From: an uncultured Holosporaceae bacterium
GTDB taxonomy: Bacteria > Pseudomonadota > Alphaproteobacteria > Holosporales > Holosporaceae
Direction of reading: 5' to 3'
DNA length: 64,000 nt
NCBI GenBank assembly: GCA_964560205.1
Contig: CAZLKT010000001.1
Location: 13,733-77,732 of the forward strand
This document shows positions 20,178 through 63,211 of the stretch, in pieces (the stretch's first letter is position 1; the number at the start of each line of letters is the position of its first letter). A program made the translations under genes and the position numbers. The notes beneath the pieces are model-generated. The model was not told where the DNA came from. It worked only from the letters and a program-made list of their open reading frames with translations, and did not search any database.

Positions 20178-22772
20178 TTAAATGCAATAACTCATCTCCT
20201 CTCTTTCTTTACCATTACCCTTCCCTGATGCTACTTGCTTTACTCCTGGTTTATCGTCGTCTTTCACCTTCAAGGGATTGGGATCACTAAACCCACCGAG
20301 CCCCATCAATTCTTCTTTTGATCTTTCACCACTCTCTACCATCTCCGCTACTGGTTTGTCTTCTTCTTGCTTTACTCCTCCTTGGTTTATGATCTTTCCC
20401 CCCTCTACCGCCGGACCCTCTTCTTGTTCTACCACCACATCCTCATCTTGGAAACCCTCTAGACTCTTTTGTTCAAATAAAGACTGAACCTTGGGGAGCA
20501 ACATCTCCGCTCCTGGTTTTTTGCCTTCTTCTTGCTTTACTCCTCCTTGGTTTATGATCTTTCCCCCCTCCCCTAGGTTCTCTTCTTGTGCTACCACCTG
20601 ATCCTCATCTTTGAAAATACCTCGTTCGTCTTCTTCAAATAAAGTTGCCAGATAATAGTCTGGATCTGACAGCTGTGACTTCTCTTTCTTCTCTCCCTTT
20701 GGATACTTTTTCTTATACCATTCCCTATTCTCTTTCAACCGTTGCTCTCGCAATTCTTTCTTCTCTTTCAACCGTTGCTCTCGCAATTCTTTCTGCTCTT
20801 GCTGCTTTTGCCGCCTTTCCTCTTGCTGCTTTTGCCCCTTAGGATCATAGTATTCGTCTTCAACATCAGAGTCCTTCCAGTGCTGATCTTTCTTCTCTAT
20901 CCGCCACTTCACATGGTCCAATTCCTGCCTCTTCTCTTCAAATCGTGCGCTTATTTTGTGTCCATATTTTAATAATAAGGCCAGCGTTGCTACTGTTCCT
21001 CCTATCACCATATCAAAATTAGACACCTGCTTCCCATCAAAGAATAGCTTATGACCTAATATACCGCCCAGAGCCGCCTCCATCTTCCAGTTCTTCACTA
21101 ATGAGAGGACGGGGGAGGGGAGGAAACGTGAAAAAAGAGAGCCCTTCATATCAGCTCTCTTCCCCAGTAGCTGCTCATACGGAGGTTGATACAAAGATTC
21201 ATATGAAACGTTTGGATCGCCCTGCCTCTGCTCTACTTCTACACCACTACCCCCCTCTGGCACTTCTTGCTCTACTTCTGCACCACTACCCCCTGGCACT
21301 TCTTGCTCTACTTCTTCATTGAAGGGCTTGTAAACAACACCCGCCTCTTCTATTTCTTGTCTTTCAACATTTTTTTCTAAAAATTCCTCATGCAATTCTT
21401 CTATACCACTACTACCCTTCCCTGGCGCTCCTTCCTCTACTTCTTGTTCGTTTACGACGCCTTCTACCACCCCTTCTTGTTTTAGCGCAATCTCCTTATA
21501 TAGGAAATCCTCTAAATCACTTTGATAGAAAGCAGCAGCATCATTATTAAGCTTAAGTTGAAGTAGTTCATCAGGTAACTTCTGCTTACTGTAGGCATGT
21601 AGCATCGCCACCACTCTAAAAAGTGGAGATAGCCGATCTGGCTTCTCTTTCAGATCTGGCTTCTCTTTCAGATCTGGCTTCTCTTTCAGCTCTGGTTTCT
21701 CTTTCAGCTCTGGCTCCTCTTTCAGCTCTGGCTCCTCTTTCAGCTCTGGCTTCTCTTTCAGCTCTGGCTTCTCTTTCAGCTCTGGCTTCTCTTTCAGCTC
21801 CTCCTTCTTCTCACCCCGCAGCCCCACGTTCTGCTCTTCTTTCTCACCGTTAAAAGAACCCATGCCCACAAACATGTCATCTTCCATTATATTACCAAAG
21901 TCTATTCCTAGAAAGGAGAATGGTCTTGCCACTCCCCAGTTTACCCACTCAAAGATACTAGAAAACAAGCTCTTCACAGGAACAACCTGCTGCTGATGAG
22001 CATTATCATCCTTCTTCTCACCCCTCACTTTTTTTAGAGCATATACTGTTGATAGGATTATCGCGGTGGCTGCTACTCCTCCTAGGGCTAGTGTATATGT
22101 ACTATTCCCTGTAAACCTGTTCAGATAGTTAACAAAATCAGCTACATATCCATCTGTCCCGTTCGAAACAGGTAACTGTCCATTAGTCGTCCCTTCTGTG
22201 CCCACATCGATCCCTTGCTCAACAGATTTCTGTCCATCAGTATTGTCTTCCATCATATGAGTATATGGAAACGCTGTACTTTGCTTTTCCCCAGATACAT
22301 CTTCTGGTACTTGGTTTTGGCTTTGGCTTTGGTTTTCCCCAGGTACTTCGTTTTGGCTTTGGCTTTGGCCTCTGCCTTGCTCTTCTTCTTTATTGCCCCT
22401 TTCAAGCTGTTGAGGTACAAGAAGGTTTTTCAATACTAAACCACCACCACCCAGAACTAAACCAGCAGTCACCGGTACGCCTGGCGCCTCCATCCCTAAT
22501 AATGAGGAGACAAGGGAAGGAGGAGGGGACGTCACAGCTCTTTTTATGTCTCCCTTCACATGCTTCGCTGTTTTGCCAGTTTTCTCCTTACTCCTGCTCC
22601 GTGAAGCCCTATTCTTGGTGCCCTGTTTTCCTCCTTTTACTTGTTTTTGAGGAGTTTGTTTCAGAGGTTTTTTGGTATGGTTATCTCTTCCTCCTGCCGA
22701 CTGCGCCCTTTCTGCATTCGTGCATATAAAAAAAAGTAAAAAAACAATGGAAGTTTTTCGAATACAAGACAT
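20178..22772 (-). CDS. Large secreted/membrane tandem-repeat protein (E/K/Q-rich), unknown function
   Basis: 864 aa. Signal peptide MSCIRKTSIVFLLFFICTNAERAQS. Hydrophobic segments YTLALGGVAATAIILSTVYAL and MVIGGTVATLALLLKYG. At least five internal repeat families: KEKPEL x9, QSQSQN-VP x2, EVEQEVP-GGSG x2, KELREQRLKE x2, and a 54-aa module x2. No family recognised. Confidence 0.8.
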   Translation of the reverse strand: MSCIRKTSIVFLLFFICTNAERAQSAGGRDNHTKKPLKQTPQKQVKGGKQGTKNRASRSRSKEKTGKTAKHVKGDIKRAVTSPPPSLVSSLLGMEAPGVPVTAGLVLGGGGLVLKNLLVPQQLERGNKEEEQGRGQSQSQNEVPGENQSQSQNQVPEDVSGEKQSTAFPYTHMMEDNTDGQKSVEQGIDVGTEGTTNGQLPVSNGTDGYVADFVNYLNRFTGNSTYTLALGGVAATAIILSTVYALKKVRGEKKDDNAHQQQVVPVKSLFSSIFEWVNWGVARPFSFLGIDFGNIMEDDMFVGMGSFNGEKEEQNVGLRGEKKEELKEKPELKEKPELKEKPELKEEPELKEEPELKEKPELKEKPDLKEKPDLKEKPDRLSPLFRVVAMLHAYSKQKLPDELLQLKLNNDAAAFYQSDLEDFLYKEIALKQEGVVEGVVNEQEVEEGAPGKGSSGIEELHEEFLEKNVERQEIEEAGVVYKPFNEEVEQEVPGGSGAEVEQEVPEGGSGVEVEQRQGDPNVSYESLYQPPYEQLLGKRADMKGSLFSRFLPSPVLSLVKNWKMEAALGGILGHKLFFDGKQVSNFDMVIGGTVATLALLLKYGHKISARFEEKRQELDHVKWRIEKKDQHWKDSDVEDEYYDPKGQKQQEERRQKQQEQKELREQRLKEKKELREQRLKENREWYKKKYPKGEKKEKSQLSDPDYYLATLFEEDERGIFKDEDQVVAQEENLGEGGKIINQGGVKQEEGKKPGAEMLLPKVQSLFEQKSLEGFQDEDVVVEQEEGPAVEGGKIINQGGVKQEEDKPVAEMVESGERSKEELMGLGGFSDPNPLKVKDDDKPGVKQVASGKGNGKEREEMSYCI
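20340..20616 (-). repeat. Approximately 115-nt module duplicated with a 162-nt period, inside the 864-aa gene
   Basis: 20340-20455 and 20502-20616 share ...catctccgct-ctggtt...cttcttcttgctttactcctccttggtttatgatctttcccccctc... They encode F(Q/K)DED-VV-QEE...EGGKIINQGGVKQEE-K-(P)-AEM twice. Confidence 0.9.
21635..21798 (-). repeat. In-frame 18-nt tandem repeat, about 9 copies, encoding (K/E)(E)KP(E/D)L hexapeptides
   Basis: The units gatctggcttctctttca and gctctggc(t/c)tctctttca run head to tail. The translation is KEKPELKEKPELKEKPELKEEPELKEEPELKEKPELKEKPDLKEKPDLKEKPD. Confidence 0.95.
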
Positions 22773-23049
22773 AAGCCCTAACCTTTCAAATTAAAAATAC
22801 CTGATATTCATTCTATATGTTTAAACCATCAAAGTCAATAGTAAAAATATATTATTTTTATTTAATATTATATTAATAAAAAAAACTGATGGAATAAGTT
22901 GCAAAGATCATGAAAAAAAATGCACACAACGAAATGAATAACATGCTTTTTGGTCTTTATGGTGGTTTTGCTGATGGAGATGGGAGATTCACACCACAGC
23001 AATAACAATGGCTAAGGCTGCTGCACCCACCATCCAGTTTTCTTTTAAA

Positions 23050-23135
23050 AAGAAAGGAAGGGCGTTACAGGTCTGTTTGTATCTCCACCTGTCACATGTT
23101 TCGCTGTTTTGTCAGTTTTCCCATTTTACACACTC
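23050..23135 (-). pseudogene. Decayed fragment paralogous to the 5' region of the 864-aa repeat-protein gene
   Basis: 23081-23120 (tctccacctgtcacatgtttcgctgttttgtcagttttc) aligns with 22551-22588 (tctcccttcacatgcttcgctgttttgccagttttc), and weaker similarity continues upstream. It translates as NGKTDKTAKHVTGGDTNRPVTPFLSF-stop, against KTGKTAKHVKGDIKRAVTSPPPSL in the intact gene. A stop codon precedes the fragment and another follows it. Confidence 0.55.
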
Positions 23136-23138
23136 CCC

Positions 23139-25001
23139 TCAGAAATAAAGGAATGCCCTCATCTGATCAAAGCGCTCCTTCAAGGAGGTCGTGTTACCAT
23201 AGAACGGCTTGTAGAGGTCTCCAGAACGAAAATTCATAAAGAGATCAGAGCTGCCAACATACTTCATAATATAATACAGATTAGAATACTCCCCTAGGGA
23301 GAGAAGACCGTGGCCTTGTAATTTCTTTCCAATGCTCGATAGGGATTTTTTTTTCGCAAAAACGCTCTGGTCAGTTCCTCGCCGTGGAGTCATGAGAAAT
23401 AAGACGCTCCGACGATCTTGCAGGGTGGACTCCTCTGCAAAAAAGTACTGTAAAAATGGAATATCCCCAAGCAGTGGCACCTTTTTCTTAGATGTTGCAC
23501 GCCAGGTGGAGTTAAGACCACCAATAACCATGGTTTGTCCAAATTTTGCCCTCACCGTATTTGACACGTTGGCTCGTGTAATGGCTATCATTTGGTCATT
23601 GATACCTATATTCATATTAGGCTCTTCAATAAAACGACTTCCTGTTACCATGATTTCTATGGTGACATAATCCCCATCAATTTCCAATGGAGTGATTTCC
23701 ACCTTTGATCCTGTATCCATATCAATAATACCTGATCCACTGGACCCAGAAGACGTTCCAATGTAGTTTCTTCCACTATAGAAGCTTGCTGTTTTACCAA
23801 GAACAGTGAAAACCGATGGACGATCAATCACCTCTATGCGTCTTTTCTGCACATTGGCAATGTTCAAATTGTATGCCATCACCACAGGAGTAATGGCAAA
23901 ATTAAAAGCCTGAGTCCAACCTTTGGTGATCTCCTCATTGGCAGAAGTTATGGTTCTTGTGAGTGCTACCAAAGGGTTTGTTCCCCCCAATGTCACTGCC
24001 AGTTTTTCCAAAATATTGTTTCCTTTTTGTGTCATCTCCTCCTCAGAAACATGCAACGTGCAGAAATCAACACCAATGGAACACTCCTCTTCTGGAGATG
24101 GTCGTCTTTCTTGTGGAGGAGGAAAATCATGAGGAGGACGCGCCTGCGGTCGTTCTTGAGTTTCCATCTGTGGTTCTTGAATGGATTGTTCTTGCTCATG
24201 TACGTCTTCTTGAGAATCCAGAGATTCTGGCCCTTCTTCGTCATCATCTCCCTGGACCGGCCTTATGGAAGCATGATTATGGAACGTCCCCCAATCAGAG
24301 ACCCTTTTTTGAAGCTGATCCACATCAGAGTACTCCTTGGGCACAAGATTTCTATACTTTTTCACATAATTCCCTGCCTCCTGAGGTTTATTACATGCAG
24401 CATAAATCAGGGCAGCGGCTCGAACCTTTTTTGCATCCTCTGAGGAGAGTTTGAGGGACTGACGAATGGCTGCCGTGGCTGCAGGAAGATCCCCCACGTA
24501 ATAAGACGCATAGGCCAACGCATAAAGTATCTCCGGATCATTGGAGCGAAGACAAAAAGCATCATAGAGATTTTTTTGGGCATCATGATATCGCCCCACA
24601 CGAATTTCATGCATACCCAGAAGATATGATCCCACCCAATTTGATGGATCTGCAGTTTTTGCTGCTTGATAAGCTACACCCGCTAACTCCGGACTGCTGT
24701 CATAACCATTCTGCGCCATGGTCTCATAGACAAGACCGTTGAGGATATGAAGTGTGGAGCTTTTCACAGAAGATTGCAAAGCAACATTAATGTACTGAGA
24801 TGCTGCCCTCAGCTCACCATTGTCAATTTTGTCCCTCAGTGCATCCATGGAAAAATGGGGAGGCAAATCACTATTTGCGCCATGTATCAAAGCAACTTTT
24901 TTTGATATCTCCTCATGCTGACTTCTTTTATCATGACATCCATAGAACAGACAAGAGAAACAAAGTATAGGAAAAAGAGATATGTGTATATTTTTCATCA
25001 T
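23139..25001 (-). CDS. Lipoprotein with an N-terminal TPR-like domain fused to a C-terminal secretin domain (paralog A)
   Basis: 620 aa. Lipobox-like CLFYGC-HDK. TPR-like helices (EILYALAYASYYVGDLPAATAAIRQSLKL). Acidic/Pro linker. Secretin signature GQTMVIGGLNSTWRATSKKKVPLLGDIPFLQYFFAEESTLQDRRSVLFLMTPR. Terminal FLYF. GGAGGAGG SD upstream. Confidence 0.8.
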   Translation of the reverse strand: MMKNIHISLFPILCFSCLFYGCHDKRSQHEEISKKVALIHGANSDLPPHFSMDALRDKIDNGELRAASQYINVALQSSVKSSTLHILNGLVYETMAQNGYDSSPELAGVAYQAAKTADPSNWVGSYLLGMHEIRVGRYHDAQKNLYDAFCLRSNDPEILYALAYASYYVGDLPAATAAIRQSLKLSSEDAKKVRAAALIYAACNKPQEAGNYVKKYRNLVPKEYSDVDQLQKRVSDWGTFHNHASIRPVQGDDDEEGPESLDSQEDVHEQEQSIQEPQMETQERPQARPPHDFPPPQERRPSPEEECSIGVDFCTLHVSEEEMTQKGNNILEKLAVTLGGTNPLVALTRTITSANEEITKGWTQAFNFAITPVVMAYNLNIANVQKRRIEVIDRPSVFTVLGKTASFYSGRNYIGTSSGSSGSGIIDMDTGSKVEITPLEIDGDYVTIEIMVTGSRFIEEPNMNIGINDQMIAITRANVSNTVRAKFGQTMVIGGLNSTWRATSKKKVPLLGDIPFLQYFFAEESTLQDRRSVLFLMTPRRGTDQSVFAKKKSLSSIGKKLQGHGLLSLGEYSNLYYIMKYVGSSDLFMNFRSGDLYKPFYGNTTSLKERFDQMRAFLYF

Positions 25002-25016
25002 GCACTCCTCCTCCCA

Positions 25017-26828
25017 TTAAAAATAAAGAAACTTGGCAATTTGCTCTAATTTATCCTCCAAAGAGCCTCCTGTGGACCCCCAAAAAGGAGGAATCATATC
25101 CCCACTTCGAAAATTATGAAAGAGAGGATTTTCTTCTAGGTGTCGAAGAATAGTGTATACAGTGTGCCGTTCTCCTATGGACATAACACCATGATCTCTC
25201 AGTTTTTGCGCATTGGAGGACAGTGTGTACAGACTTTTTTTCTTTTTCTTTTTGTGAGACTCCCACCGTGGAGAAATAAGGAAAATGGTATTTCTTGTGT
25301 CGCTGTTCGTGGAATTGGATGCAAAAAAGTATTGTACAACAGGAAGATCCTTCAAAAGCGGAGTACCATACTCATGTGCATGCTGAGCAACGGAGTTGAT
25401 ACCACCGATAAAAATCGTTTCACCAGATCTGGCCTTCACCGTGGTAGAAAGCTTTACTTTTCCTAAACTTAAAAGTTGTGTTGTGATGCCTTTTATAACA
25501 TCTGGCTCTTTCAAAAATGTACTGTCCTCAAGGGTAATGTTCAAGGTTAGTACATCATCCTCATCAATAGAAACAGGTAAAATCTTCACATTGGTACCAG
25601 AACTTACAGACGCCACCGTTGATCCTGTAATACCTGCAGTGGCCCCAGTATACTGATCTCCTTCTAAAAAATGTGTTGGTGTGCCCAAAAGTGTGGTCAC
25701 CGTAGGACGAGAAAGAAGCTCCACCGTATCCACATCCACATTGGCAATATTTAAGCTGTACGCTAAGTTCGAAGAGTTCGCGGAAAAAGCAAAATTTTGG
25801 GTCCATCCTCCCGTAATGGCCCCCCCTTTATTTTCTCTGTCTCGGCTAAGGTCCACATAAGGTAATGTGGTCTTCTCCCCGCCCATGGAAATTCTCAGGG
25901 AATCCAAAATATTCTGCCCCATGCTGGTAAAAGTTGTTTGTGTGGACGTCAGCAAATAACAATCAAAAGTGATCACCTGAGCATGCTTTCTTTGCTGATC
26001 ATCTGGTGAGGGTAGCGGCTGTGGCTGGTCATCAGAGAACTCACCCTCCTCTCCCTGAACATTTTCAAAAAAAGCGGTATTGGTGTGAAGCCTTTTCCAA
26101 TCCGCAATTCTTTCTTGCACCATGACCACATCTGCATCATTGCCTTTCATAGCACTTTTATACGCCACAAAAGACGCTTCACTTTGAGTAAAATCCGAAC
26201 ATGCCGCTGATATAATGGCACATGCCCTATGAAAAAGAGCATTCTTCGGCTCCAACGCCACAGCTTTTTGAATGCTCTCACATGCCAAATGAAGATCCCT
26301 TACATAATAGGACGCACATGCTAAGGCATACAAAATTTCTGGTTTTTCTGGGCGAAGGATGAGAGCATTAACCAAATAATCCTGTGCCTTCTGATATTGT
26401 TTTTTCTGAAGCGAATAGCATCCATATAAATAGGCATAAAGCCATTTAGAGGGATCAAGGGTACAAGCCGAACTGTACGCAACGCCTGCAAGCTCCTCAC
26501 ATGTTTCATCACCCCGTCGCGCTCTTTCTTCGTAAATAATGCCATTGATGACGTGTAAGGCTGGAAAATTCACACTGATCTGGAGGGCCTGATTCACAAT
26601 ATGCGACGCCTCCTTCAAATTTCCCCTTCTTATAGACTCTTTTAACTTTTCTAAAGGAAAATATGTGGGAAGATCGAAGTGCTCTTTGGAAAGCCTTGTT
26701 AAGATGTCCCTCTTTTCAAAAAGTCCTTCTCCCCCCAAACTATTCGTAGAAGCAGACTCCTTGTCATGACAAGCACATAGAAAAATACTACAGAGAGAAA
26801 GAACCTTGGCATAATCTTTATTTTTCAT
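25017..26828 (-). CDS. Lipoprotein with an N-terminal TPR-like domain fused to a C-terminal secretin domain (paralog B)
   Basis: 603 aa with the same architecture as paralog A. SIFLCAC-HDK lipobox, EILYALACASYYVRDLHLACESIQKAVAL, GETIFIGGINSVAQHAHEYGTPLLKDLPVVQYFFASNSTNSDTRNTIFLISPR, terminal FLYF. It ends 15 nt upstream of paralog A. Confidence 0.8.
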   Translation of the reverse strand: MKNKDYAKVLSLCSIFLCACHDKESASTNSLGGEGLFEKRDILTRLSKEHFDLPTYFPLEKLKESIRRGNLKEASHIVNQALQISVNFPALHVINGIIYEERARRGDETCEELAGVAYSSACTLDPSKWLYAYLYGCYSLQKKQYQKAQDYLVNALILRPEKPEILYALACASYYVRDLHLACESIQKAVALEPKNALFHRACAIISAACSDFTQSEASFVAYKSAMKGNDADVVMVQERIADWKRLHTNTAFFENVQGEEGEFSDDQPQPLPSPDDQQRKHAQVITFDCYLLTSTQTTFTSMGQNILDSLRISMGGEKTTLPYVDLSRDRENKGGAITGGWTQNFAFSANSSNLAYSLNIANVDVDTVELLSRPTVTTLLGTPTHFLEGDQYTGATAGITGSTVASVSSGTNVKILPVSIDEDDVLTLNITLEDSTFLKEPDVIKGITTQLLSLGKVKLSTTVKARSGETIFIGGINSVAQHAHEYGTPLLKDLPVVQYFFASNSTNSDTRNTIFLISPRWESHKKKKKKSLYTLSSNAQKLRDHGVMSIGERHTVYTILRHLEENPLFHNFRSGDMIPPFWGSTGGSLEDKLEQIAKFLYF

Positions 26829-27076
26829 AGTGATGTCACTTAAAATCCTTTGCTAACAATATATAAAAAAAAAATTAACGTCAATCCAATATGAATGTGG
26901 ATTTTCGAGTAACAACATGATGGAATTTTGTCAATGGGAAGGAAAATTGTGGAAAGAAGGGAAAAAAGATCACTTGTAACGACAAAAGAAACGTGGTATG
27001 GTTTGTCGTCCTTGTGATTTTTCCCACAGGTGTCGAAAATTCTTTCACAGTTACCTAGGATGGTTTTTGTTCCTTT

Positions 27077-28363
27077 ATGATGCGTTTCCATGAATTTAGA
27101 AAGCAATCACTGCAGGACCTGCTTGCTATAGCGCATACTCTTGCAGTGGATCAACCAGAGTCTTTGAAAAAACAAGACCTGAAACATGCGGTGTTGCGAA
27201 AAAAGGCAGAAAAAGATGAGTTCATCACTGCCGAGGGCGTGGTGGAAATTTTGCCAGATGGATTTGGCTTTCTCCGCTTTTCCTTCACAAACTATTTGCC
27301 GGGAGCAGATGACGTATATCTCTCCTTACAGCAAATTCGTTCCTTCCATTTAAAAACAGGAGATGTGGTTGAGGGCGTTATCCATGTCCCCCAAGATAAT
27401 GGGCGATATTGCACCTTATCAAAGATTATAACCATTAACACACAACCTCCTGGATCAAACCATCATCGTGTCTCTTTTGATTCCCTCACGCCAATCTTTC
27501 CTGAAAAGAAGATTTGTTTTGAGATGGCACCAGCACATCAACCACAGGAAAAGGCCTTCTTACGAAAAGATCTCACATTGCGTGTCATTGATTTGGTGGC
27601 TCCCATTGGGTTTGGTCAACGAGCCCTTATTGTTGCCCCTCCACGCACAGGAAAAACCATTATTTTACAATCCATCATTAAGGCAATTATGGCCAACCAT
27701 CCGGAGGTGCATCTCATCGTTTTGCATATTGATGAACGTCCCGAGGAAGTCACGGAAATGGTACGATTGGTAAAGTGTGGTGAAGTGATAAGTTCCACCT
27801 TTGATGAGCCAGCCACACGTCATGTGCAGGTGGCAGAAATGGTCCTGGAAAAAGCAAAACGTTTGGTCGAGGCAAAAAAAGATGTGGTCATTGTGCTTGA
27901 TTCCATCACCAGACTCGCCAGGGCCTACAATACGGTTATGCCATCTTCTGGAAAAGTACTGACGGGAGGCGTTGATGCCAATGCACTGCAAAAGCCCAAA
28001 AGGTTTTTTGGTGCTGCGCGTAATGTGGAAGAGGGAGGGTCGTTGACCATTATTGCAAGCGCTTTGGTAGAAACAGGGTCACGCATGGATGAAGTGATCT
28101 TTGAAGAATTTAAGGGCACAGGAAACTGTGAAATTATCCTTGATCGCAAACTTGCAGATCGAGGGATTTTCCCAGCCATTGATGCAACAAAATCAGGAAC
28201 TCGCCGTGTGGAACTTTTGGTGGATCCCGCCATTATGATGAAACTTGTTGTGTTGCGGAGGGTGCTCAGCCCCATGGGCTCACAAGAAGGCATGGAGTTC
28301 CTTCTGGATAAACTCGCCCTCACAAAGAACAATGATGATTTTTTTCAAAACATGAATCGTTGA
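27077..28363 (+). CDS. rho: Transcription termination factor Rho
   Basis: The N-terminal RNA-binding region ([14 protein letters not shown]) and the Walker A motif (PPRTGKT) support Rho. The downstream RecA-like motifs and the length (428 aa) also fit. Confidence 0.95.
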
Positions 28364-30455: not shown

Positions 30456-31874
30456 TCAAGACTTTTTATGGGGAATGGATGGTTTTTCAGGATGCGCCGC
30501 CCACACAGTTAAAACCCCATCGGAGTTAAAAAGAAAAATCTTTCCATGGGCCACAGCGATGGCAGCCTTTTCCGCACCCTCACTCCCTTTATACTCAGAA
30601 AGAATATGACCTTTTTTGGTGGGGTCCATGGCGATAATATCCCCCTCATTATTCACCACATATACCGCATTATTAGCTACAAAAGGACCAAACCACGCTG
30701 CAGAAGGAAGCCCACGTGCATTCACCAAATCTTTTGCCCACATGACCTCCCCTGTATCTGCATGAAGTGCCACCATCCTCCATGAAGACATCCCCATTTC
30801 CGATGGTTTTTCTATGCAAAAAAGCATATGCCCTGAAATCCAGGGGGTACTGTTTAAGCGCAGGGGACACTTCCATATGAGATCCCCTGTCTCAAGCTGG
30901 TAACAACACACATAATGATCAGTCGTAACGGTGTATAGATAATGGTTATTAATAACGGGAGAGCATCGTGTGTGGGAAAGATGGTGCTGGGTGGAGGCCA
31001 AAGATTTTGTTTTTTTCCCATCATTTTTAATCCATAAAAGCGCTTCATTCACAAGAGATAATGCCACCACCTCACCCGAAGAAAATGTAGACACCATAAT
31101 GCCATCATCAGAAATAGAGGGCGATATATTGCCCAAATACCGCGATTCCTCCACAAGACCAGAATAGTCCATCACAGACTCTCCGGTTTTCGTATCAAAA
31201 ATCTCCACCTGATTATTCATATTAAGACAACACACATAGTTCTCATAGTATACTGGCGCTCCACGGACCGGAGCCGTGGTGGCTTGGGTCCACAGAGTAC
31301 TCCCATCTTTTTCGGAAAGACAAAAAATATGACAGCAGGGGGTGGTAATAAAAAGATGTCCCTTCCCGTCACTACACATGCCACCACCAAACTGTGTCAC
31401 ATCTGACTCTTCTGAAAGCGCCTTATTCCACTGGAGCTGACCAAAAAGATCCACGCAATGAACGGCACCACAATGATAGAGAAAAACATGGTCGTGGGTA
31501 ACAATGGGGGTGGCCGTCAAGTAACTGGGTTCCTGCCTGGTGCTATAGGACCATGCAGGAGTCAAAGGCCCTGGTGAAAGAAAAAGATTGCTGCTGTTGC
31601 GAGACGCAGTACGCCCATCCTGAAGCCACAGAAGATCCGCCCTCATAACTGGGGAAAGAATAATTTCTCTTTCTCCTGCCAACGAAGATTCCACGATCTT
31701 CGAGGTTGTATCATCCACATCCACTGAAATACGCTTTCCCTCCAAAGGTATTTTTTCCTTTTCAAAGAGACTGCATCCTCCGAGAAAAAGTCCACATAAA
31801 AGGACCACCCCCATGGAAAGCGCTCTTTTCTGTGTCAACAGACCCTTCAAAAAACTCCAACAACATTTTGTCAT
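30456..31874 (-). CDS. bamB: PQQ-like beta-propeller outer-membrane lipoprotein (BamB-like)
   Basis: Lipobox LFLGGC-SLF. Repeated beta-propeller blades with W/G periodicity. It lies immediately downstream of a YfgM-like gene, as in the conserved yfgM-bamB pair. The start may be the internal MGVVLLC methionine at 31814. Confidence 0.65.
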   Translation of the reverse strand: MTKCCWSFLKGLLTQKRALSMGVVLLCGLFLGGCSLFEKEKIPLEGKRISVDVDDTTSKIVESSLAGEREIILSPVMRADLLWLQDGRTASRNSSNLFLSPGPLTPAWSYSTRQEPSYLTATPIVTHDHVFLYHCGAVHCVDLFGQLQWNKALSEESDVTQFGGGMCSDGKGHLFITTPCCHIFCLSEKDGSTLWTQATTAPVRGAPVYYENYVCCLNMNNQVEIFDTKTGESVMDYSGLVEESRYLGNISPSISDDGIMVSTFSSGEVVALSLVNEALLWIKNDGKKTKSLASTQHHLSHTRCSPVINNHYLYTVTTDHYVCCYQLETGDLIWKCPLRLNSTPWISGHMLFCIEKPSEMGMSSWRMVALHADTGEVMWAKDLVNARGLPSAAWFGPFVANNAVYVVNNEGDIIAMDPTKKGHILSEYKGSEGAEKAAIAVAHGKIFLFNSDGVLTVWAAHPEKPSIPHKKS

Positions 31875-31884
31875 GCTTCATATC

Positions 31885-32571
31885 CTACTCATATTGATCT
31901 TTTTCTTGAAATGTACGAGAAACTCCTGCACCTAGGGCAGTATAAAGAAAAAGCCAATATCCTCGGCTGTTTGCCTCTATTTTGCTCTCCCACTGAGAAA
32001 AGCCCTTCAGAAGTTGAGACCCACCCTGGGGATTCACTGTGCAATATTCTGCCAAAGCATCATAAAGAAGCACCATGGGTCTCCATGCAACGCTTTTCTT
32101 GTAATATTCAGAAAACTTCTTGTCTTCAGAAGAAGAAATACCTGCTCCCCCTGTATCGATATGCTTTAATGCCATGGCTGCAGAGAGAAAGTTCATGATC
32201 TCCACGGACTCACTGTAAGGAGCAAAAAAATCCTTTATTTCTTGAGCGCTGTGTGCTTCTTTCAGCAAATATAGGGATGAAAGGGTCTCCATCCCATCCC
32301 TTTCTGAGACTGATGTCTTCAGGACCTCCTCTGCGTCCTTCTTCTCTTGTGAGGTTGCATCCGTCTTTTCCAAAATCTCTATGGAAGAAAGAAAGACATG
32401 CTCTCTCTCATACAGGGCCTCCTCTCGTCGCGCATTCATCCATGTTTTCAGTGCCACCCCCATGAGGAGAAAGACCGCACATATGCCTGCAATGGCAAGC
32501 ACGCGAAAAAATTTTTTCAAAAAATCTTCTCGTTTAAGCTCCTCGTGGATTTCATCAAGAATTTTTGTCAT
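31885..32571 (-). CDS. Membrane-anchored helical protein, YfgM-like (call rests on synteny)
   Basis: One N-terminal transmembrane segment (FFRVLAIAGICAVFLLMGVAL) followed by a helical periplasmic domain. The position directly upstream of the bamB-like gene supports the call. Sequence evidence alone is weak. Confidence 0.45.
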   Translation of the reverse strand: MTKILDEIHEELKREDFLKKFFRVLAIAGICAVFLLMGVALKTWMNARREEALYEREHVFLSSIEILEKTDATSQEKKDAEEVLKTSVSERDGMETLSSLYLLKEAHSAQEIKDFFAPYSESVEIMNFLSAAMALKHIDTGGAGISSSEDKKFSEYYKKSVAWRPMVLLYDALAEYCTVNPQGGSQLLKGFSQWESKIEANSRGYWLFLYTALGAGVSRTFQEKDQYE

Positions 32572-32723
32572 AAAAAAATGCCCAGATATAATCGCCTCAC
32601 CCATCATAGAATATTTCACAGATCCTCGTAAAGTGTTGTTTTTTTTTCTGGTATTTTTCTTGTCTTCTTAAGGTGTATACCATACACTTATGTACACGAG
32701 AATGGTAAGAGGTTACGTGCGTC

Positions 32724-39617: not shown

Positions 39618-39904
39618 TAAAAACAGAAATTTATGCCTTTTATCTCTGGGTGATGCGTATGGCGGCCCACGGAGCGGAACTTCTCTATCTCTCCTGGTTC
39701 AGACCCTGGTTTTCTGGACAATGTCGTTTCCATCCCACCTGTTTTCCCTATGTTAAGGAAGCTTTTCTACGTTTCTCTCTTGGAAAAGCTCTTTTTTTAA
39801 GTATTCGACGCTTATGTCGGTGTCATCCATGGGGTCCCATGGGTGAAGATCCTCTTCCACTTTTTCCACCACAAAAAAAAGGACCGTATCATGGAAAAGA
39901 ATAA
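39614..39904 (+). CDS. yidD: Membrane protein insertion efficiency factor YidD
   Basis: ...GQCRFHPTCFPYVKEAF...IRRLCRCHPWGPMGEDPLP. ATGA overlap with rnpA. Confidence 0.85.
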   Translation: MIKTEIYAFYLWVMRMAAHGAELLYLSWFRPWFSGQCRFHPTCFPYVKEAFLRFSLGKALFLSIRRLCRCHPWGPMGEDPLPLFPPQKKGPYHGKE

Positions 39905-41618
39905 AAATATTTTTATTGCAGCCCTTTTGTTCATCATCATCTGGCTTGGGATGGAGCTCTGGAGAAAACCAGAAACCCCTTCTAGAGAAACCACTTCTAC
40001 TCAGAGCAACGCCGTAATGCCTGCTCCTGCCCCGGTGGTGTGTCCTCCCTGTGAGAAAAAAGTATCACGAGAGGAAGCCTTATTGCTGACAAAGGACCAG
40101 CGCATCGCCATAAACACACAATATCTTCAAGGATCCATTCTCCTCAAAGGGCTTCGCATGGATGATGTGGCTCTTCGAGCATATCCTGCACAAACAGAGG
40201 GGGATGCCCCAGTAGTCATTTTGGCGCCCCTCGAAACACCCCAGGCTTATTATGGAACCTTTCGATGGGAAAATATGAAGGAAGAAAAAAATATTGAACT
40301 TCCTTCAGAAGACACAGTATGGAGCTGTGACGAAACATCTTTTACAGAAGAAAAGCCCATTACACTCTACTGGACAAATAATGTTGGAATAAGGTTTGAA
40401 TATATATTGTCTGTTACTGGGTATATGATTACTGTAAAACAGAATATCTCTAATGGTACTTCTGAGCCTATCCATGTAAGGGCCGTTGACGTGCTTCACA
40501 AAAGTTGTCCAGAAAAATCCCAGGGGATGATTTTTCACGAGGGCGCCATAGGGGTTTTTCAGAATAAACTGAGAGAAGTCACCTATGAAAAATGCTATAA
40601 GCCTCAAGAGCAGAACCCTCAATTCCTCCATGGAGACGAAAAATATCATGGGTGGATAGGCATTACAGACAAATATTGGTTAAGTGCTTTTATTCCAGAG
40701 GAAAAAAGTACCATGGGGCGTTTTTATGGTGCTTCTGGAGAAAGAGCTTTTTGCAGTGCAGAAACCTTTTCTCCTGTACAGGTGGTGGCCCCAGGAGCAA
40801 CCAAAACAATTACAAGCAATTTTTTTGTGGGACCTAAAAATCTTAAGCTTTTGGAGGGATATAAAAAGGAATATCATATCGCTCATTTTGATTTAGCAGT
40901 GGACTTTGGGTGGTTTTATTTTTTGACAAAGCCATTCTTTTTGATGTTGTCCTTTTTAAAGGAGCTTTTGGGAAGCTTTAGTCTTGCAATTCTCATCATG
41001 ACAGTTCTTATTCGTGTGTTGTTCTTGCCTCTATCCATTAAATCACAAAAATCCATGATACGCTTAAAAAAACTACAGCCAAAAATTGATGCTTTAAAGG
41101 CACAATATGCATCCGATAAATTGCGGTTGAACCAGGAGCTTTTAGGACTTTACAAAAAAGAAGGCATTAATCCCGTTTCTGGATGTCTTCCCATGCTTAT
41201 ACAACTTCCATTTTTCTTTGCTCTTTATAAAGTACTCTTCATTTCTCTGGAAATGCGCCATGCACCTTTCTGGGGATGGATACGAGATTTATCAGCACCA
41301 GACCCAAGCAATATCTTCACAGGATTTGGTCTTTTTTCCTACGAGGTTCCCTTTGGACTTCATATGGGAGCATGGCCCATCATCATGGGATTGAGCATGT
41401 GGCTTCAACAAAAAACTACGGATTCCCCTTTGATGGATCCTCATCAACGATTTCTCCTCACCTATGTCTTGCCAGCAGTATTTGCATATATGTTTGAAAA
41501 CTTCCCTGTTGGACTTGTCATTTATTGGACATGGGGAAATATTCTCACCATTGTCCAACAATGGGTCATGACAAAATGGATGGGGAAAGGATCACAGTCG
41601 TTTTCTCTATCACCGTAG
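39891..41618 (+). CDS. yidC: Membrane protein insertase YidC
   Basis: N-terminal transmembrane segment, a large periplasmic domain, and the conserved core ...LAILIMTVLIRVLFLPLSIKSQKSMIRLKKLQPKIDALK...INPVSGCLPMLIQLPFFFALY. Confidence 0.9.
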   Translation: MEKNKNIFIAALLFIIIWLGMELWRKPETPSRETTSTQSNAVMPAPAPVVCPPCEKKVSREEALLLTKDQRIAINTQYLQGSILLKGLRMDDVALRAYPAQTEGDAPVVILAPLETPQAYYGTFRWENMKEEKNIELPSEDTVWSCDETSFTEEKPITLYWTNNVGIRFEYILSVTGYMITVKQNISNGTSEPIHVRAVDVLHKSCPEKSQGMIFHEGAIGVFQNKLREVTYEKCYKPQEQNPQFLHGDEKYHGWIGITDKYWLSAFIPEEKSTMGRFYGASGERAFCSAETFSPVQVVAPGATKTITSNFFVGPKNLKLLEGYKKEYHIAHFDLAVDFGWFYFLTKPFFLMLSFLKELLGSFSLAILIMTVLIRVLFLPLSIKSQKSMIRLKKLQPKIDALKAQYASDKLRLNQELLGLYKKEGINPVSGCLPMLIQLPFFFALYKVLFISLEMRHAPFWGWIRDLSAPDPSNIFTGFGLFSYEVPFGLHMGAWPIIMGLSMWLQQKTTDSPLMDPHQRFLLTYVLPAVFAYMFENFPVGLVIYWTWGNILTIVQQWVMTKWMGKGSQSFSLSP

Positions 41619-57893: not shown

Positions 57894-58463
57894 TTAAAAC
57901 CATATCCCCAGGGAAAGGTTGTGAATATGCCCCCATACCTCTTCTTCTCCATGGTTCGTTTTATAACATAATGAAGAGAGGAGGCCATGGGTCATGAGAA
58001 GGCTGAGTATGGTGCTCTCATTGTGTGAAAGGGATGTGTGGAACACTGCAAACGTGTAAAAATGATGATAAAACGGGTGAATCCACTGGAAAAGGGTGGA
58101 GATGGACAGTGTCGCTTCATATAAAATTTCTTGCATCAGAGAAAAAAATGGCTCCAAGAGATCCATGGTGGTGAGAATACCTTCTATGAAAACTTCTTGT
58201 GCATGAAAGGGCCTTCTTTTTTTGAGTATCTGGAACATGTGGTGCGCAGTTTTCTGGAAAAATGCAGTCATGATATGATTCTTTTCTGGAAAAAGACGAA
58301 AAAGCGTCCATGCATCCACATGTGGGTGCTGTGCCATGAGTTCACGGAAGCAAAAATTTCTCCACCCTCTTTGTATAAGAAGCAGTAAACATTTTTCTAA
58401 AAGATTATTTGCAGAAAAAGATACGGACTTCGGGGGGGTGAAAGAAAAACTCATAGACAACAC
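57894..58463 (-). CDS. Hypothetical protein with a possible TetR-type fold (TetR/AcrR- or COQ9-like)
   Basis: The N-terminal LLEKCLLLLIQRGWRNFCFRELMAQHPHVDAWTLFRLFPEKNHIMTAFF loosely fits the TetR helix-turn-helix pattern. The evidence is weak. Confidence 0.35.
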   Translation of the reverse strand: MLSMSFSFTPPKSVSFSANNLLEKCLLLLIQRGWRNFCFRELMAQHPHVDAWTLFRLFPEKNHIMTAFFQKTAHHMFQILKKRRPFHAQEVFIEGILTTMDLLEPFFSLMQEILYEATLSISTLFQWIHPFYHHFYTFAVFHTSLSHNESTILSLLMTHGLLSSLCYKTNHGEEEVWGHIHNLSLGIWF

Positions 58464-58485: not shown

Positions 58486-60000
58486 CTACACTGGTGGTGT
58501 CTTTGGGAGATCGTCTAGCGGTAGGACACTCGGCTCTGGACCGTGTAACCCTGGTTCGAATCCAGGTCTCCCAGCGTTTCCTTGGGTGAGTGCGCCCTTA
58601 GGATTTCTTCTCCTTTCTTCTTTTATATTTTTGAGAAGATCACGAAAGTCCTTGGCTTTTTTCTCATAGGGGTCCCCCATGGGTAAAATTTTCAATGCTT
58701 CATCGATGTGAAACTGGGCTTTTTCGAGATCGTTTTCATGGAGCGCGCATTCCGCCAAGCACACACGCATGGGGCCAAATTTTTGCAGTTTTCCATAAAC
58801 AATGCCAAGACGATACCAGACCTCGGGACTAGGCTCGGAAACAAAGAGAAGCTGCTCTAAGGTTTTGACTGCCTCCTTTAAAGCTTCTGGATTATCCATC
58901 ATGGTGAGAATATGTGCTTTAAAAGATGCCAGGAGCATGTCCCTAGGGCGATGCTTTACTGCTTGGTCTATGGCCTCTTTCGCCTCAGGAATACGTCGAG
59001 CGTCCACAAGGATTTGTGCTCGAAGCTCTTCTATAAAGGCAGTGGTAAAGACAGGATTGTTCCGCAAAGGATCTAATATCTGGAGAGCCTTATCCCATTG
59101 ACCCAATCTATAGTGGACAATGGCTTTCCCATAATCTTTCATAATCTGTGGAACAGGAAGCTTCTCAATGGTGAGAAATGCTCCAGCAAGGTCTGTGAGA
59201 TGGGCGATAATTTTTGTTTTTATGAGGGAGAATTTGAGGGAAAAAGTGTGGGGCATGGGGAGGATATTTTTTTGCTCCAGCTTTTCTTTATAGTAATGGG
59301 CAGACATCATACGATCTTTGGAAAACGGGTGGGTTCTTAAATACGGATGCACGCTGTAAACAGAATCTTTTTTGCCTAATTTTTCCATCATGGCAAGAAA
59401 GCCATCCATGGACCATTTCAAGCTTGAAAGCACATGAAGAGCAAATTGATCTGCAGAAGATTCTTGAGTTCTGCTGTATCCCATGAGATCAGCATAGGCC
59501 CAATATTGTCCAATATTCCCAAAGCCAAATGCTCGAACATCCCTCAGAAGACCTGCAGCCAAAAGCCCCAAAAGGGTGGATAATATGGATCTATTTTGTG
59601 TTCTGCTTAAAAGCTCCACACGACTGATCCAATGTTTGCCAGCAATGTGACCAAGCTCGTGGTACAGCACCGCAATGAGCTCTTCCACGGAATCCATTGA
59701 AGCGATAAGACCCGTGTTGCAAAAGATTTCTTGATTAGGTGTGGCAAAGGCATTGATGGAGTCTGTGACAATGACATACATGCGTACGCGGTGAATCTCT
59801 GGTACCTTTCGCAAAGCGGGTGCGAGAAACTCTGCAAGCACTTCTTCGATTTCACTATCGCGAAGCACTGCCCCCTCTTGGATTCTCAGAGGAAAGGAAA
59901 AAATGTCTTGTGGAGCAAGGAAGAAAGAGATCTGCAAGGGAAGAAGAAAACAAAAAAAGTATCTACTGAGAATGCTTGTGAGAAAACTCTTTCTTTTCAT
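58486..60000 (-). CDS. M48-family zinc metalloprotease with C-terminal TPR repeats (BepA-like)
   Basis: Signal sequence, the HELGH zinc motif (LYHELGHIAGKH), and TPR-like helices. The last codons (...RPGFEPGLHGPEPSVLPLDDLPKTPPV) are antisense to tRNA-Gln. Confidence 0.8.
   Translation of the reverse strand: MKRKSFLTSILSRYFFCFLLPLQISFFLAPQDIFSFPLRIQEGAVLRDSEIEEVLAEFLAPALRKVPEIHRVRMYVIVTDSINAFATPNQEIFCNTGLIASMDSVEELIAVLYHELGHIAGKHWISRVELLSRTQNRSILSTLLGLLAAGLLRDVRAFGFGNIGQYWAYADLMGYSRTQESSADQFALHVLSSLKWSMDGFLAMMEKLGKKDSVYSVHPYLRTHPFSKDRMMSAHYYKEKLEQKNILPMPHTFSLKFSLIKTKIIAHLTDLAGAFLTIEKLPVPQIMKDYGKAIVHYRLGQWDKALQILDPLRNNPVFTTAFIEELRAQILVDARRIPEAKEAIDQAVKHRPRDMLLASFKAHILTMMDNPEALKEAVKTLEQLLFVSEPSPEVWYRLGIVYGKLQKFGPMRVCLAECALHENDLEKAQFHIDEALKILPMGDPYEKKAKDFRDLLKNIKEERRRNPKGALTQGNAGRPGFEPGLHGPEPSVLPLDDLPKTPPV
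58504..58574 (+). tRNA. tRNA-Gln (anticodon CUG), no encoded CCA
   Basis: Hand fold: TGGGAGA TC GTCT AGCGGTA GGAC A CTCGG CTCTGGA CCGTG TAAC CCTGG TTCGAAT CCAGG TCTCCCA G. The U1-A72 pair is typical of tRNA-Gln. There is one U-U mismatch in the anticodon stem. Confidence 0.75.
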
Positions 60001-60898
60001 GTTTTTTCCAAGAAAGCACGAGGAGTGACGAGAGTATAACACAAGATCCGCATATCATCCACCATGTGGGATATTCTCTGAAGAAAAGCACTCCCATCCA
60101 TGCACCAAGCACCAATTTAAAGGACCCAACAGGAAGAAGGAAGGAGAGGTCGGTATAGGAAAAAGCTTTGCCAAGGCACCAATGGGCAAAAGCCAAAGCA
60201 ATTCCGCATAACCAGAGAAGAGCGCACTCCTCCCCCGTGGGCCATATCCAAAGGGGGATGCTTGGCAATAGTGTTATACTGACAGAAAGCATAAGAACAC
60301 ACGCAATGGATTGTGGTGAAAACTTTTCATGTAAAAGTTTTTTTCCCAAGATATTGGACAACGAACAGGAAAGGGCCGCGCAGAGAGGCACAAGCATCAG
60401 CCATGATGCGTTTTCTTCTGCAGAAACATGGGATGTGCTGAAAATTCTGGAGCCCTCCATGAGAAGAATCCCTCCACATATGCCAAGCATAATGGATACG
60501 CTGCGCTGCATGGACAGGTTTTCTTTTAAAAAAAGTTTTGCCCCCAGTGCTGTGAAAAAAGGCCCCATGAACCCAAGGGCAACACTTTGAAAGAGGGGAA
60601 GTTTTTGTATGGCATAGGTCCATGATATAACGCTTATAACGCTTATAAAAGATCGAGCCAAGGATGACCACGATGACAAAAGCCCTCGGGGGAAACTTCT
60701 CAGGATGCATAAGAGAAAAACCCCTCCTATGAAATTCTGGCAACAGGCTATCTGTAAAGCGGGCAGAGAAAGACTCTTTATCAGCACGTTGGAAAGAGAA
60801 AAGAAGAGACACGCCAAAAGCTTCCACAGGATCGCCTTTTGGGCAGAAGAAGACATGTGTACAGGAAAAAATCTCATGGCTCCTCTTGCGTCTTGCAT
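59963..60898 (-). CDS. EamA/DMT-family transporter
   Basis: About 10 hydrophobic segments in two similar halves. The start codon is uncertain. Confidence 0.7.
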   Translation of the reverse strand: MQDARGAMRFFPVHMSSSAQKAILWKLLACLFFSLSNVLIKSLSLPALQIACCQNFIGGVFLLCILRSFPRGLLSSWSSLARSFISVISVISWTYAIQKLPLFQSVALGFMGPFFTALGAKLFLKENLSMQRSVSIMLGICGGILLMEGSRIFSTSHVSAEENASWLMLVPLCAALSCSLSNILGKKLLHEKFSPQSIACVLMLSVSITLLPSIPLWIWPTGEECALLWLCGIALAFAHWCLGKAFSYTDLSFLLPVGSFKLVLGAWMGVLFFREYPTWWMICGSCVILSSLLVLSWKKHEKKEFSHKHSQ

Positions 60899-60985
60899 TA
60901 TTGAGCAGTATAAGCAAAAAAAATGTTCTTACAAATTTCTTATGGTTTGTCACGTGGCGTATTTGCAGGTAGTATGGAGGTGTAC

Positions 60986-61933: not shown

Positions 61934-63211
61934 ATGTTTGGGAGGGGTCCTTTGTCTTCTTTTGGAAATTTTGTCGCTTTGCGATTTTTGTGGTCCTCGC
62001 GGCGAAGGGGATTCGCAGCCCTTGTGGCAATGTTCTCCTTTGTGGGGGTCGTTTTGGGGGTGGCAACGCTTATTATTGTCATGTCCGTCATGAATGGGTT
62101 TCGCCATGAGCTCATGCATCGCATCTTAGGTCTTAATGGACATATTACCGTTTATTCTGGAAAGTCTGTTATGAAAGATTTTTCTGCTGTGCAAGAATAT
62201 ATTGTGCGTGATCCCTTTGTGACCCAGTGTTCGCCCATTATCGAAAAACAGGGCCTTTTTCTTGCCCAGGGGGCTTCAGGAGGGATTATTCGAGGCATTA
62301 TTCCCTCCGCCTCCTATCATCAGAATTCCCTCTTGTCCAAAAGCCTTCTCCAGGGAAGCATCATGGATATGGAGACGCCTTATACAGTTATTATCGGCCA
62401 TAAGCTGGCAAAAAAAATTCATATGCGGGTGGGGGATCGCATGAAAATTATGGTGGCACAAAATCGCCCCACGGTTATGGGGTTTTTGCCGCGTTCTCGT
62501 TCCTTTCGTGTGGTGGGTATTTTTGATACGGGGATGCATGAATATGATCAGGCTTTTGTATTTATGTCCTTGGCCACTGCACAAAAATTTTGGGATATGC
62601 CTTCGGACACGGTGACACATATGGAAATTTTTGTTAAAGACCCGGAAAACATAGACAACATCTCTCGTCATATGGGCATCCAGCTTGCTGAAGGCTTTCC
62701 CCATGAGGAGCTTCTTGTCTATGATTGGCAAAAGGCCAATGCCCACTTTTTCAATGCAATTCAGGTGCAGAGAAATGTGCTTTTTCTCATTCTCCTGTTG
62801 ATTATCCTTGTGGCAGTTTTTAATATTGTGGCCTGTCTTATTATGTTGGTGCAGGATAAAATAAAAGATATTGCTGTCTTACGAACTCTGGGGGCCACAC
62901 GAGGAGCGATTTTAGGCATCTTTCTTCGGGTGGGCGCCTTTATTGGGGGTGTGGGAACCCTTGTGGGCACGATTATTGGGCTTTCGTTTTCTTATTACAT
63001 CGATCATATTCGTCGCTTTTTGGAGTTCTGTTCTGGTGCAGAGCTTTTTCAAGCGGAAATTTACTTTCTCTCAAAGCTTCCTGTGCAGATTCGTGGCTTT
63101 GAAGTTTTTCTTGTGGCTTTTGTAACCATTGGACTGAGTTTTGTGGCATCTTTCTATCCTGCATGGAAAGCATCACGACTTCATCCTGTGGAAGGATTAC
63201 GTTATGAGTAA
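61934..63211 (+). CDS. lolC: Lipoprotein-releasing ABC transporter permease (LolC/LolE family)
   Basis: ...[44 protein letters not shown]..., a periplasmic MacB-like domain, and a C-terminal FtsX-type transmembrane bundle. Confidence 0.85.

Follow-up and report, generated by a model that had tools for sequence, protein, structure and literature searches.

Tandem secretins with fused tetratricopeptide repeats and no recognizable docking domains in an uncultured Holosporaceae bacterium

Secretins dock on their machines via periplasmic N-domains and usually need a separate pilotin; to our knowledge, all characterized secretins operate with larger machines, namely the type II (T2SS) and type III (T3SS) secretion systems, type IV pili (T4P), Tad pili, and filamentous phage. 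What, then, could be the role of adjacent secretins that carry no such N-domains and have no genes of such a machine nearby? This question is raised by the block at positions 20178-26828 of a 64,000-nt stretch of DNA (hereafter, the window, to which all coordinates refer) from an uncultured Holosporaceae bacterium (assembly GCA_964560205.1, contig CAZLKT010000001.1, positions 13,733-77,732, forward strand). The block encodes two secretins, referred to here as A and B, and a repeat protein. The answer that we favor, giving it not quite an even chance of being correct, is that A and B form an operon of two paralogous, self-piloting secretins that have no N-domains and serve as a standalone exit, whereas the repeat-protein gene is a separate unit and probably does not encode a dedicated cargo. 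The block has the following layout:

25017-26828, minus strand: secretin A, an intact open reading frame (ORF) of 603 amino acids (aa)
25002-25016, minus strand: the 15-nt junction from the secretin A stop to the secretin B start, with the strong Shine-Dalgarno sequence GGGAGGAGGAG
23139-25001, minus strand: secretin B, an intact ORF of 620 aa
20178-22772, minus strand: the repeat-protein gene, an intact ORF of 864 aa

Domain architecture of secretins A and B and of their family

Both proteins are members of the secretin superfamily. The Pfam Secretin domain (PF00263) is matched by A with 80 bits (E = 2e-22) and by B with 91.7 bits (E = 5e-26), against a cut-off of 27.5 bits, with coverage of positions 3-166 of the 169 positions of the profile. 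The fold of the AlphaFold model of B, which is of moderate confidence (mean predicted local distance difference test [pLDDT] score of 60, with a low-confidence C-terminal tail), points the same way: in Foldseek, the core of B matches the GspD, PilQ, InvG, RcpA, and pIV chains with a probability of 1.0, and a sequence search of the PDB agrees. In Pfam, A and B also match families of tetratricopeptide repeats (TPR). The two proteins are 37% identical over their full length and are, therefore, paralogues, and the 15-nt gap with its strong Shine-Dalgarno sequence indicates that their genes form one operon. The parts of the two proteins are as follows:

Secretin A: a lipoprotein-type signal (..IFLCAC); TPR at about aa 60-240 (nt 26109-26651); a short acidic linker; the core, matched by Pfam at aa 368-521 (nt 25266-25727); and a C-terminal extension with FLYF as the last residues
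Secretin B: a signal that ends in ..LFYGC; TPR at aa 30-245 (nt 24267-24914); a disordered linker at aa 246-305; the beta core at aa 308-541 (nt 23379-24080); and a C-terminal extension at aa 542-620, also with FLYF as the last residues

The same plan is seen when A and B are aligned with seven database relatives: a signal peptide leading to a conserved Cys residue, which in A and B aligns with the canonical L-x-G-C lipobox of most relatives, a TPR region of ~200 aa, a linker that is low in complexity and varies in length, a secretin core starting from a "V-D-x-x-I-L-x-V" strand, and a conserved tail of ~80 aa. Invariant alignment columns include G-x-T...GG(L/I) and VP-L-x-D-(I/L)-P...F. The earlier description of a secretin devoid of docking domains is borne out for both proteins. 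None of the N-domain families PF03958, PF21305, PF07660, PF11741, PF04972, and PF13629 gives a match in A or B at E ≤ 0.1, whereas ordinary secretin matches in the database, including those of CpaC, do carry such families. In the AlphaFold model of B, the helical TPR region (aa 30-245, pLDDT of about 85) is followed by disorder (aa 245-305) and then by the beta core (aa 308-541), with no alpha/beta N-domain between the TPR and the core.

None of the established secretin classes accommodates the pair. With respect to GspD, the proteins have no N0-N3 domains and no gsp neighbors within the window, and they score 42 and 60 bits with TIGR02517 against a cut-off of 351. With respect to PilQ, which is the best NCBIfam match of B, there are no AMIN, N0, or N3 domains and no pilMNOP neighbors, and the TIGR02515 scores are 44 (A) and 66 bits (B) against a cut-off of 284. 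The BON and T2SS-T3SS_pil_N domains expected of RcpA and CpaC are absent, as are tad neighbors in the window; the SctC equivalog TIGR02516, with its cut-off of 238 bits, gives 47 and 53 bits, and the MshL score is likewise far under its cut-off. In Foldseek, the TPR part of B matches the pilotin PilF (2fi7 and 2ho1; probability of 1.0, TM-score of 0.63-0.64 normalized to the target), but its TIGR02521 (PilW) score is 31 bits against a cut-off of 154, so that the modeled similarity to the PilF, PilW, and TadD pilotins is best described as a resemblance of fold rather than membership. Weak NCBIfam matches of the TPR repeats to BcsC and PgaA were detected as well.

An exhaustive HMMER search against 1.84 billion cluster representatives returned 672 representatives at E ≤ 1e-30; at least 150 of them, counted as 50%-identity clusters, match over their full length at E < 1e-124. 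Database names of the members are automatic only ("TadD," "PilF," or "GspD"), there is no Pfam or NCBIfam model specific for this family, and searches of the available literature for secretins fused to TPR, for standalone or orphan secretins, for secretins together with Tectonin, and for the structure of the A. caldus secretin found nothing that describes it. A lipobox-like motif is present in 126 of 145 representatives, and the C-terminal tetrapeptide F-L-[YFW]-[YF] is retained in about 93% of the members. Judging from these sequences, the TPR-secretins are a previously undescribed kind of secretin, in which a pilotin-like TPR module has been fused to the channel and the docking domains are gone.

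Several characterized secretins share individual features with this family. HxcQ, which Viarre et al. (2009) reportedly described as the liposecretin of the P. aeruginosa Hxc T2SS, similarly has its own N-terminal lipid anchor (in A and B, lipidation is predicted) and needs no separate pilotin, but it retains N0-N3, operates within a complete T2SS, and has no TPR domain. The filamentous-phage pIV (PDB 7ofh), the smallest characterized secretin, is likewise compact, encoded apart from T2SS and T4P operons, and similar in the fold of its core; however, it retains N0 and N3, docks on the pI/pXI inner-membrane complex of the phage, is not a lipoprotein, and has no TPR. A further parallel is provided by RcpA and TadD of the P. 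aeruginosa Tad system (PDB 8odn), in which the last four residues of RcpA enter the groove of the PilF-like TPR lipoprotein TadD, an interaction that is essential for secretin assembly (PMC10499894). Here, too, a secretin core is combined with a PilF-like TPR module, and it is the extreme C terminus, the part that serves as the TPR ligand in RcpA, that carries the family's most conserved short motif. In contrast to the RcpA-TadD pair, the TPR module is fused in cis, on the N-terminal side of the secretin core, through a disordered linker, there are no VirB9-like or BON-type N-domains and no tad genes nearby, and an aromatic FLYF replaces the RcpA tail. Because of this precedent and the conservation of F-L-[YFW]-[YF], the fused TPR would be expected to bind the conserved C terminus, either in cis or in trans.

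Gene neighborhoods across the family and the question of a missing machine

Neighborhoods were compared at 112 loci, which were collected in genome scans (based on a six-sequence alignment) and metagenome scans and clustered locally, with flanks that total 1.39 Mb. Outside the tandem pairs of the type found in Finniella (see below), the gene is mostly single and is often tightly linked to a partner gene. The downstream gene is co-directional and within 150 bp in 57 of 95 loci, with a typical gap of -4 to about 100 bp, and a crude rule assigns a signal peptide to 41 of these 57 tight downstream partners versus 304 of 872 (35%) in the background. The downstream partners include pentapeptide-repeat proteins (19 loci), Tectonin beta-propellers (12 loci), a Jacalin lectin, a Vps62-domain protein, and others. 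One cassette, in which Ricin-B-lectin proteins and an AraC regulator are encoded upstream, is seen repeatedly in Alpha-, Beta-, and Gammaproteobacteria. A standalone secretin beside a protein with a Sec signal is thus a real and recurrent pattern at the level of the family; the partner could be a cargo or an accessory ring.

Two contexts are seen repeatedly. In the first, an AraC regulator is followed by a large signal-peptide protein with a Ricin-B lectin C terminus, the TPR-secretin, and a signal-peptide Tectonin beta-propeller of 810-1090 aa, with gaps of 5-94 bp. This cassette is present in Rhodospirillales, Sneathiella, a betaproteobacterium, and Neptuniibacter (L018:5906-14070, L021:6279-14257, L029:6069-14338, L019:9791-14227, and L017:9806-12769 among the clustered loci) and looks horizontally mobile and functionally linked. 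The second, which is the commonest context in marine and freshwater metagenomes, combines a TAXI/NMT1_3 solute-binding protein, the TPR-secretin, and a signal-peptide pentapeptide-repeat protein of 260-350 aa in which the motif C-x-x-C-[DN]-[LM]-R-[YF] is conserved just past the signal peptide; the start and stop codons often overlap (gap of -4 to 20 bp), as in L047:3034-6821, L062, L064, L067, and L098-L102.

A motif scan of the 1.39 Mb of flanks at the 112 loci detected one ATPase motif of the T2SS type but neither prepilin nor Flp motifs, and no secretion-machine family recurs in these flanks. The sole T2SS/T4P-type Walker motif (GPTGSGKTT) is located at about position 5726 of locus L080, on the minus strand, in a 601-aa ORF that is divergent from the TPR-secretin and about 2 kb upstream of it. 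At the locus studied here, no T2SS, T4P, or Tad genes were found in the 64-kb window, in which all other genes are housekeeping ones.

These data bear directly on the main rival explanation, which is that the pair is the outer-membrane part of a reduced machine (T4P-like, competence, or Tad) whose genes lie elsewhere in the genome and that its neighbors are irrelevant. This idea has in its favor the association of all characterized secretins with such machines, the PilQ match of B (66 bits), and the similarity of the TPR module to the pilotins PilF and TadD. It also draws on a report of "incomplete type IV pili" in most Holosporales and of Tad pili in some (PMC9992710). However, PilQ, for all its similar core and its association with the TPR pilotins PilF, PilW, and Tgl of type IVa pili, the first of which the TPR part matches along with a weak match to TIGR02521 PilW, has AMIN, N0, and N3 domains and a pilMNOPQ operon, none of which is found for A and B. 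The pair offers no domain of the N0, N3, AMIN, or BON type that could contact PilP, GspC, or a Tad platform, every equivalog cut-off is missed by far, and across 107 loci from many phyla, a single T2SS-type ATPase and no prepilin motif lie within 8-10 kb. In the complete genome of "Candidatus Bodocaedibacter" (Holosporales, Paracaedibacter-like), only Sec and a type VI secretion system (T6SS) were reported (PMC8163844). The calls of incomplete type IV pili may even stem from the TPR-secretins themselves. In the secretion-system tables available from the supplements of the Holosporales comparative paper, no pilQ or secretin entries were found. We consider a hidden machine unlikely, although its chances are far from negligible.

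The repeat-protein gene

The question of what a standalone exit would serve leads to the gene next to it. The earlier note had proposed a minimal two-step pathway without a T2SS, T4P, or Tad apparatus, in which Sec would bring the repeat protein to the periplasm and the adjacent liposecretin pair would then export it or display it on the surface. The standalone part of this proposal agrees with the architecture and the family-wide context described above; the repeat protein as its cargo does not fare well. The surroundings of the genes are as follows:

22773-23138, minus strand: an AT-rich spacer that separates the secretin B gene from the repeat gene, holds a relic and the best promoter-like site of the region, and has no terminator-like hairpin
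26829-27076: an AT-rich spacer that separates the divergent genes of secretin A and Rho and has weak minus-strand promoter-like sites at 26884-26856 and 26839-26811
19045-20043, plus strand: a gene for a pseudouridine synthase of the RluA/RluD type, in convergent orientation to the repeat gene
27077-28363, plus strand: the gene for the transcription termination factor Rho, divergent from secretin A
18072-18743, plus strand: a gene for a HAD-family phosphatase, a marker of residual synteny, as its Finniella-clade homologue comes directly downstream of the pair

This layout was correctly read in the earlier note as a minus-strand block (its three ORFs are intact and located exactly where it had placed them) between housekeeping flanks, with AT-rich spacers (GC content of 0.33-0.36 in both versus about 0.44 elsewhere). 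The relic that it had noticed is real but small (roughly 70-100 nt): spacer positions 23055-23120 match positions 22521-22584 of the repeat gene with 82% identity over 67 nt (E = 3e-11), and the relic, which extends over about 23040-23138, is a degenerate copy of codons ~58-90 of that gene. An origin of the relic from a secretin is ruled out, as blastx and blastn detect similarity to the repeat gene only. An 88-aa ORF on the minus strand of the divergent spacer (26840-27106) overlaps the start of rho and is probably not a gene.

The repeat protein, for which the label "giant" is an overstatement at 864 aa, is rich in Glu (13%), Lys (11%), and Gly (10%) and has no Pfam or NCBIfam match. Its gene contains several tandem arrays (20340-20644, 20728-20800, 21229-21315, and 21637-21800), the last of which comprises 9.1 copies of an 18-nt unit with 96% identity (EKPELK repeated nine times), which suggests recent expansion and possible variation in length. 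The gene shows strongly negative GC and AT skews on the plus strand, because purines predominate on its coding strand. Disorder is predicted for about 85% of the protein, and a single-sequence structure prediction (mean pLDDT of 41) is mostly disordered, so no meaningful fold search could be based on it. A hydrophobic stretch is present at aa 8-24, but the earlier claim of a Sec signal of its own, and of the periplasmic fate that was attached to it, is insecure. The segment at aa 25-95 has 18 Lys/Arg versus 4 Asp/Glu residues (net charge of +14), and further membrane-type hydrophobic segments are found at aa 96-119, 228-246, and 583-604 (in one of them, the Kyte-Doolittle values of 19 residues average 1.96). 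By the positive-inside rule, these features of the sequence make the protein look like one anchored in the inner membrane rather than a soluble periplasmic intermediate.

Comparison with relatives does not support the pairing of the repeat gene with the secretins. The closest clade is found among Holosporales and consists of "Candidatus Finniella inopinata" and related metagenome-assembled genomes (MAGs), although even the nearest relatives are distant (about 31-35% identity; 24-33% for the relatives from the genome scan), and a metagenome scan with secretin B alone detected no close relative of the locus. In the Finniella clade, the TPR-secretin gene always forms a tandem pair in a fixed order, with rmuC divergent on the left and then sec1, sec2, and the HAD gene (RmuC< >sec1 >sec2 >HAD), the last of which is a homologue of the gene at 18072-18743 in the window. 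Both paralogues are under purifying selection in these genomes (ratio of nonsynonymous to synonymous substitution rates of 0.06-0.16). None of the five Finniella-clade genomes has a repeat-protein gene between sec2 and the HAD gene, and L033, a locus on a 988-kb metagenome contig, keeps a tandem pair (L033:7986-11512) without that gene as well. In these relatives, the secretin pair thus occurs independently of the repeat gene, an outcome that the earlier note had named as refuting its module, and the gene order that it had proposed to check is not conserved. No homologue of the repeat protein was found by tblastn against the 112 loci, nor by a word-index search of the protein database that was weakened by low-complexity words saturating its 8000 candidates.

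In the window, the HAD gene is inverted relative to the Finniella clade, and the genes for Hfq, the pseudouridine synthase, and the repeat protein lie between it and the secretin pair. The HAD, hfq, and pseudouridine synthase genes form a plus-strand block at 18072-20043. Since the HAD gene is co-directional and directly downstream in Finniella but inverted here, an inversion or insertion is implied, with the repeat gene at this rearranged, fast-changing junction.

The pairing itself appears to have arisen more than once. A and B are each nearer to Finniella sec2 than to sec1, and tandem pairs also occur outside the Finniella clade, in L033 and in a Rhodospirillales MAG (L011:1777-5703); judging from these relationships, duplication of TPR-secretins is probably recurrent. 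Such recurrent pairing hints at a benefit of two copies, possibly in mixed rings.

Taken as a module, the repeat gene and the secretins still have some points in common with the tight loci. The gene is co-directional with the pair and immediately downstream of it and has a hydrophobic N terminus, which is the slot occupied by the signal-peptide partners in at least 41 of the 57 tight loci. No intrinsic terminator was detected between secretin B and the repeat gene (the spacer folds no better than its shuffled versions, z = -0.64), and the relic means that repeat-gene sequence has been beside secretin B for some time. However, the gap is 366 bp, well beyond the -4 to about 100 bp of typical partners, and ahead of the repeat gene it holds TTGACT-17-TAGAAT (22838-22810, a 10/12 match), which of all promoter-like sites in the region is the best. 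The positively charged segment and the three membrane-type segments would favor retention in the inner membrane, the predicted disorder is unlike the globular beta-rich partners found elsewhere, and the gene is missing from all relatives that keep the secretin pair. We consider the module to have only a small chance of being right.

The rest of the window contains genes for HflX, IleS, PotABD, L21/L27, Hfq, GyrA, AlaS, and Lon. The window is also notably rich in genes for envelope biogenesis (4069-6495, 30456-31874, 58486-60042, 61934-63211, 39843-41618, and 13628-14518), a set that consists of BamA, BamB, a BepA-like M48 peptidase with TPR repeats, a MacB_PCD/FtsX permease that may be LolC/E, YidC, and SecF; none of these adjoins the secretins. 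Three minus-strand ORFs of 189-244 aa (31885-32619, 57894-58463, and 60327-60953) have no Pfam match at E ≤ 1e-5, and the first of them has no NCBIfam match either.

Possible mode of action and significance

The lectin-like and pentapeptide-repeat partners could also be read in another way, with the TPR-secretin exporting a polymer, in the manner of PgaA, BcsC, AlgK-AlgE, or secretin slime nozzles, and with its neighbors as polymer-binding or ring-forming accessories. The outline is indeed the same, since in PgaA, BcsC, and AlgK-AlgE, one chain has a periplasmic TPR on its N-terminal side and an outer-membrane channel on its C-terminal side, and lectin folds (Tectonin, Ricin-B, and Jacalin) are common among the partners elsewhere. 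Secretins are required for slime secretion, and in cyanobacteria, NIES39_A07680, a protein with pentapeptide repeats, co-purifies with PilQ as a lower ring (PMC12475490), and pentapeptide-repeat proteins are the commonest downstream neighbors in the TPR-secretin family. However, the secretin of the slime nozzle is a canonical PilQ, and there is no pentapeptide-repeat gene at the window locus. The channels of PgaA, BcsC, and AlgK-AlgE are monomeric 16-18-strand porins encoded in synthase operons, as opposed to a multimeric secretin, and the weak matches to BcsC and PgaA are confined to the TPR repeats. With no synthase, glycosyltransferase, or polysaccharide gene beside the secretins in the window or recurring in the flanks, polymer export seems improbable. 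The idea that the pair replaces a missing outer-membrane part of the non-standard Holosporales T6SS is pure speculation, as we know of no T6SS that uses a secretin, and the window contains no T6SS gene.

For the preferred reading, that of a standalone exit formed by two self-piloting secretins, we infer the following mode of action. Sec would export both A and B, a lipid would be attached to the conserved Cys residue of each, and the Lol system would then deliver them to the outer membrane. There, the PilF/TadD-like TPR module would substitute for a separate pilotin, with the C-terminal F-L-Y-F probably docking into the TPR groove of the same or a neighboring subunit, as RcpA does with TadD. 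The cores would form gated outer-membrane rings, either two homomeric ones or a mixed one. Having no N0-N3, these rings would not be able to dock on the inner-membrane platform of a T2SS, T4P, or Tad system in any known manner and so would most likely act alone, as an outer-membrane exit for periplasmic substrates delivered by Sec. The repeat gene would be a separately transcribed, fast-evolving, lineage-specific gene with a mostly disordered, membrane-anchored product.

Several observations weigh against this reading. The earlier claim of a liposecretin agrees with the lipoprotein-type signal and the Cys aligned with the family lipobox, but the residues at positions -3 to -1 of the lipobox are non-canonical (LCA before the Cys in A and FYG in B). 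The model of secretin B, with its mean pLDDT of 60 and low-confidence tail, lends no support to the TPR-tail contact. A gate is probably present in the core, since the core spans almost the whole Pfam Secretin profile, and the proposed mechanism gives no account of how it would open without a pseudopilus, a pilus, or a needle. In addition, the repeat gene does hold the position of a signal-peptide partner, and incomplete type IV pili have been reported in Holosporales, and the machine survey at this locus covers 64 kb of the genome.

A broader proposal extends the same reading to the whole family. TPR-liposecretins could take over from Sec as a platform-independent second step that consists of a secretin alone, dispenses with a pseudopilus, an ATPase, and an inner-membrane platform, and releases or displays the neighboring Tectonin, Ricin, Jacalin, and Vps62-type lectin- or toxin-like proteins and pentapeptide beta-helices. 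We regard this proposal, including its choice of substrates, as doubtful but worth stating. In Holosporales, the conserved pair could be the exit route for proteins that are stored in the periplasm and released during host infection. To judge from the titles of references in a review (PMC11909080), which nowhere mentions secretins, Holospora releases periplasmic 63- and 89-kDa proteins during infection; this link is a lead rather than a result.

The TPR-secretin family, which counts hundreds of sequence clusters, drops the N-domains and carries a pilotin-like TPR in cis, and its genes are almost never near machine genes but frequently share tight operons with those for lectin-like proteins that have signal peptides. 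If a TPR-secretin works alone, it would represent a new minimal two-step secretion route, which would raise the question of how a secretin gate is opened without a piston. The cassettes found in free-living carriers offer a testable system for this. A pair under selection has been retained in the reduced genomes of intracellular Holosporales, which are usually reported with only Sec and a non-standard T6SS, and this makes it a concrete candidate for host-directed export in these bacteria.

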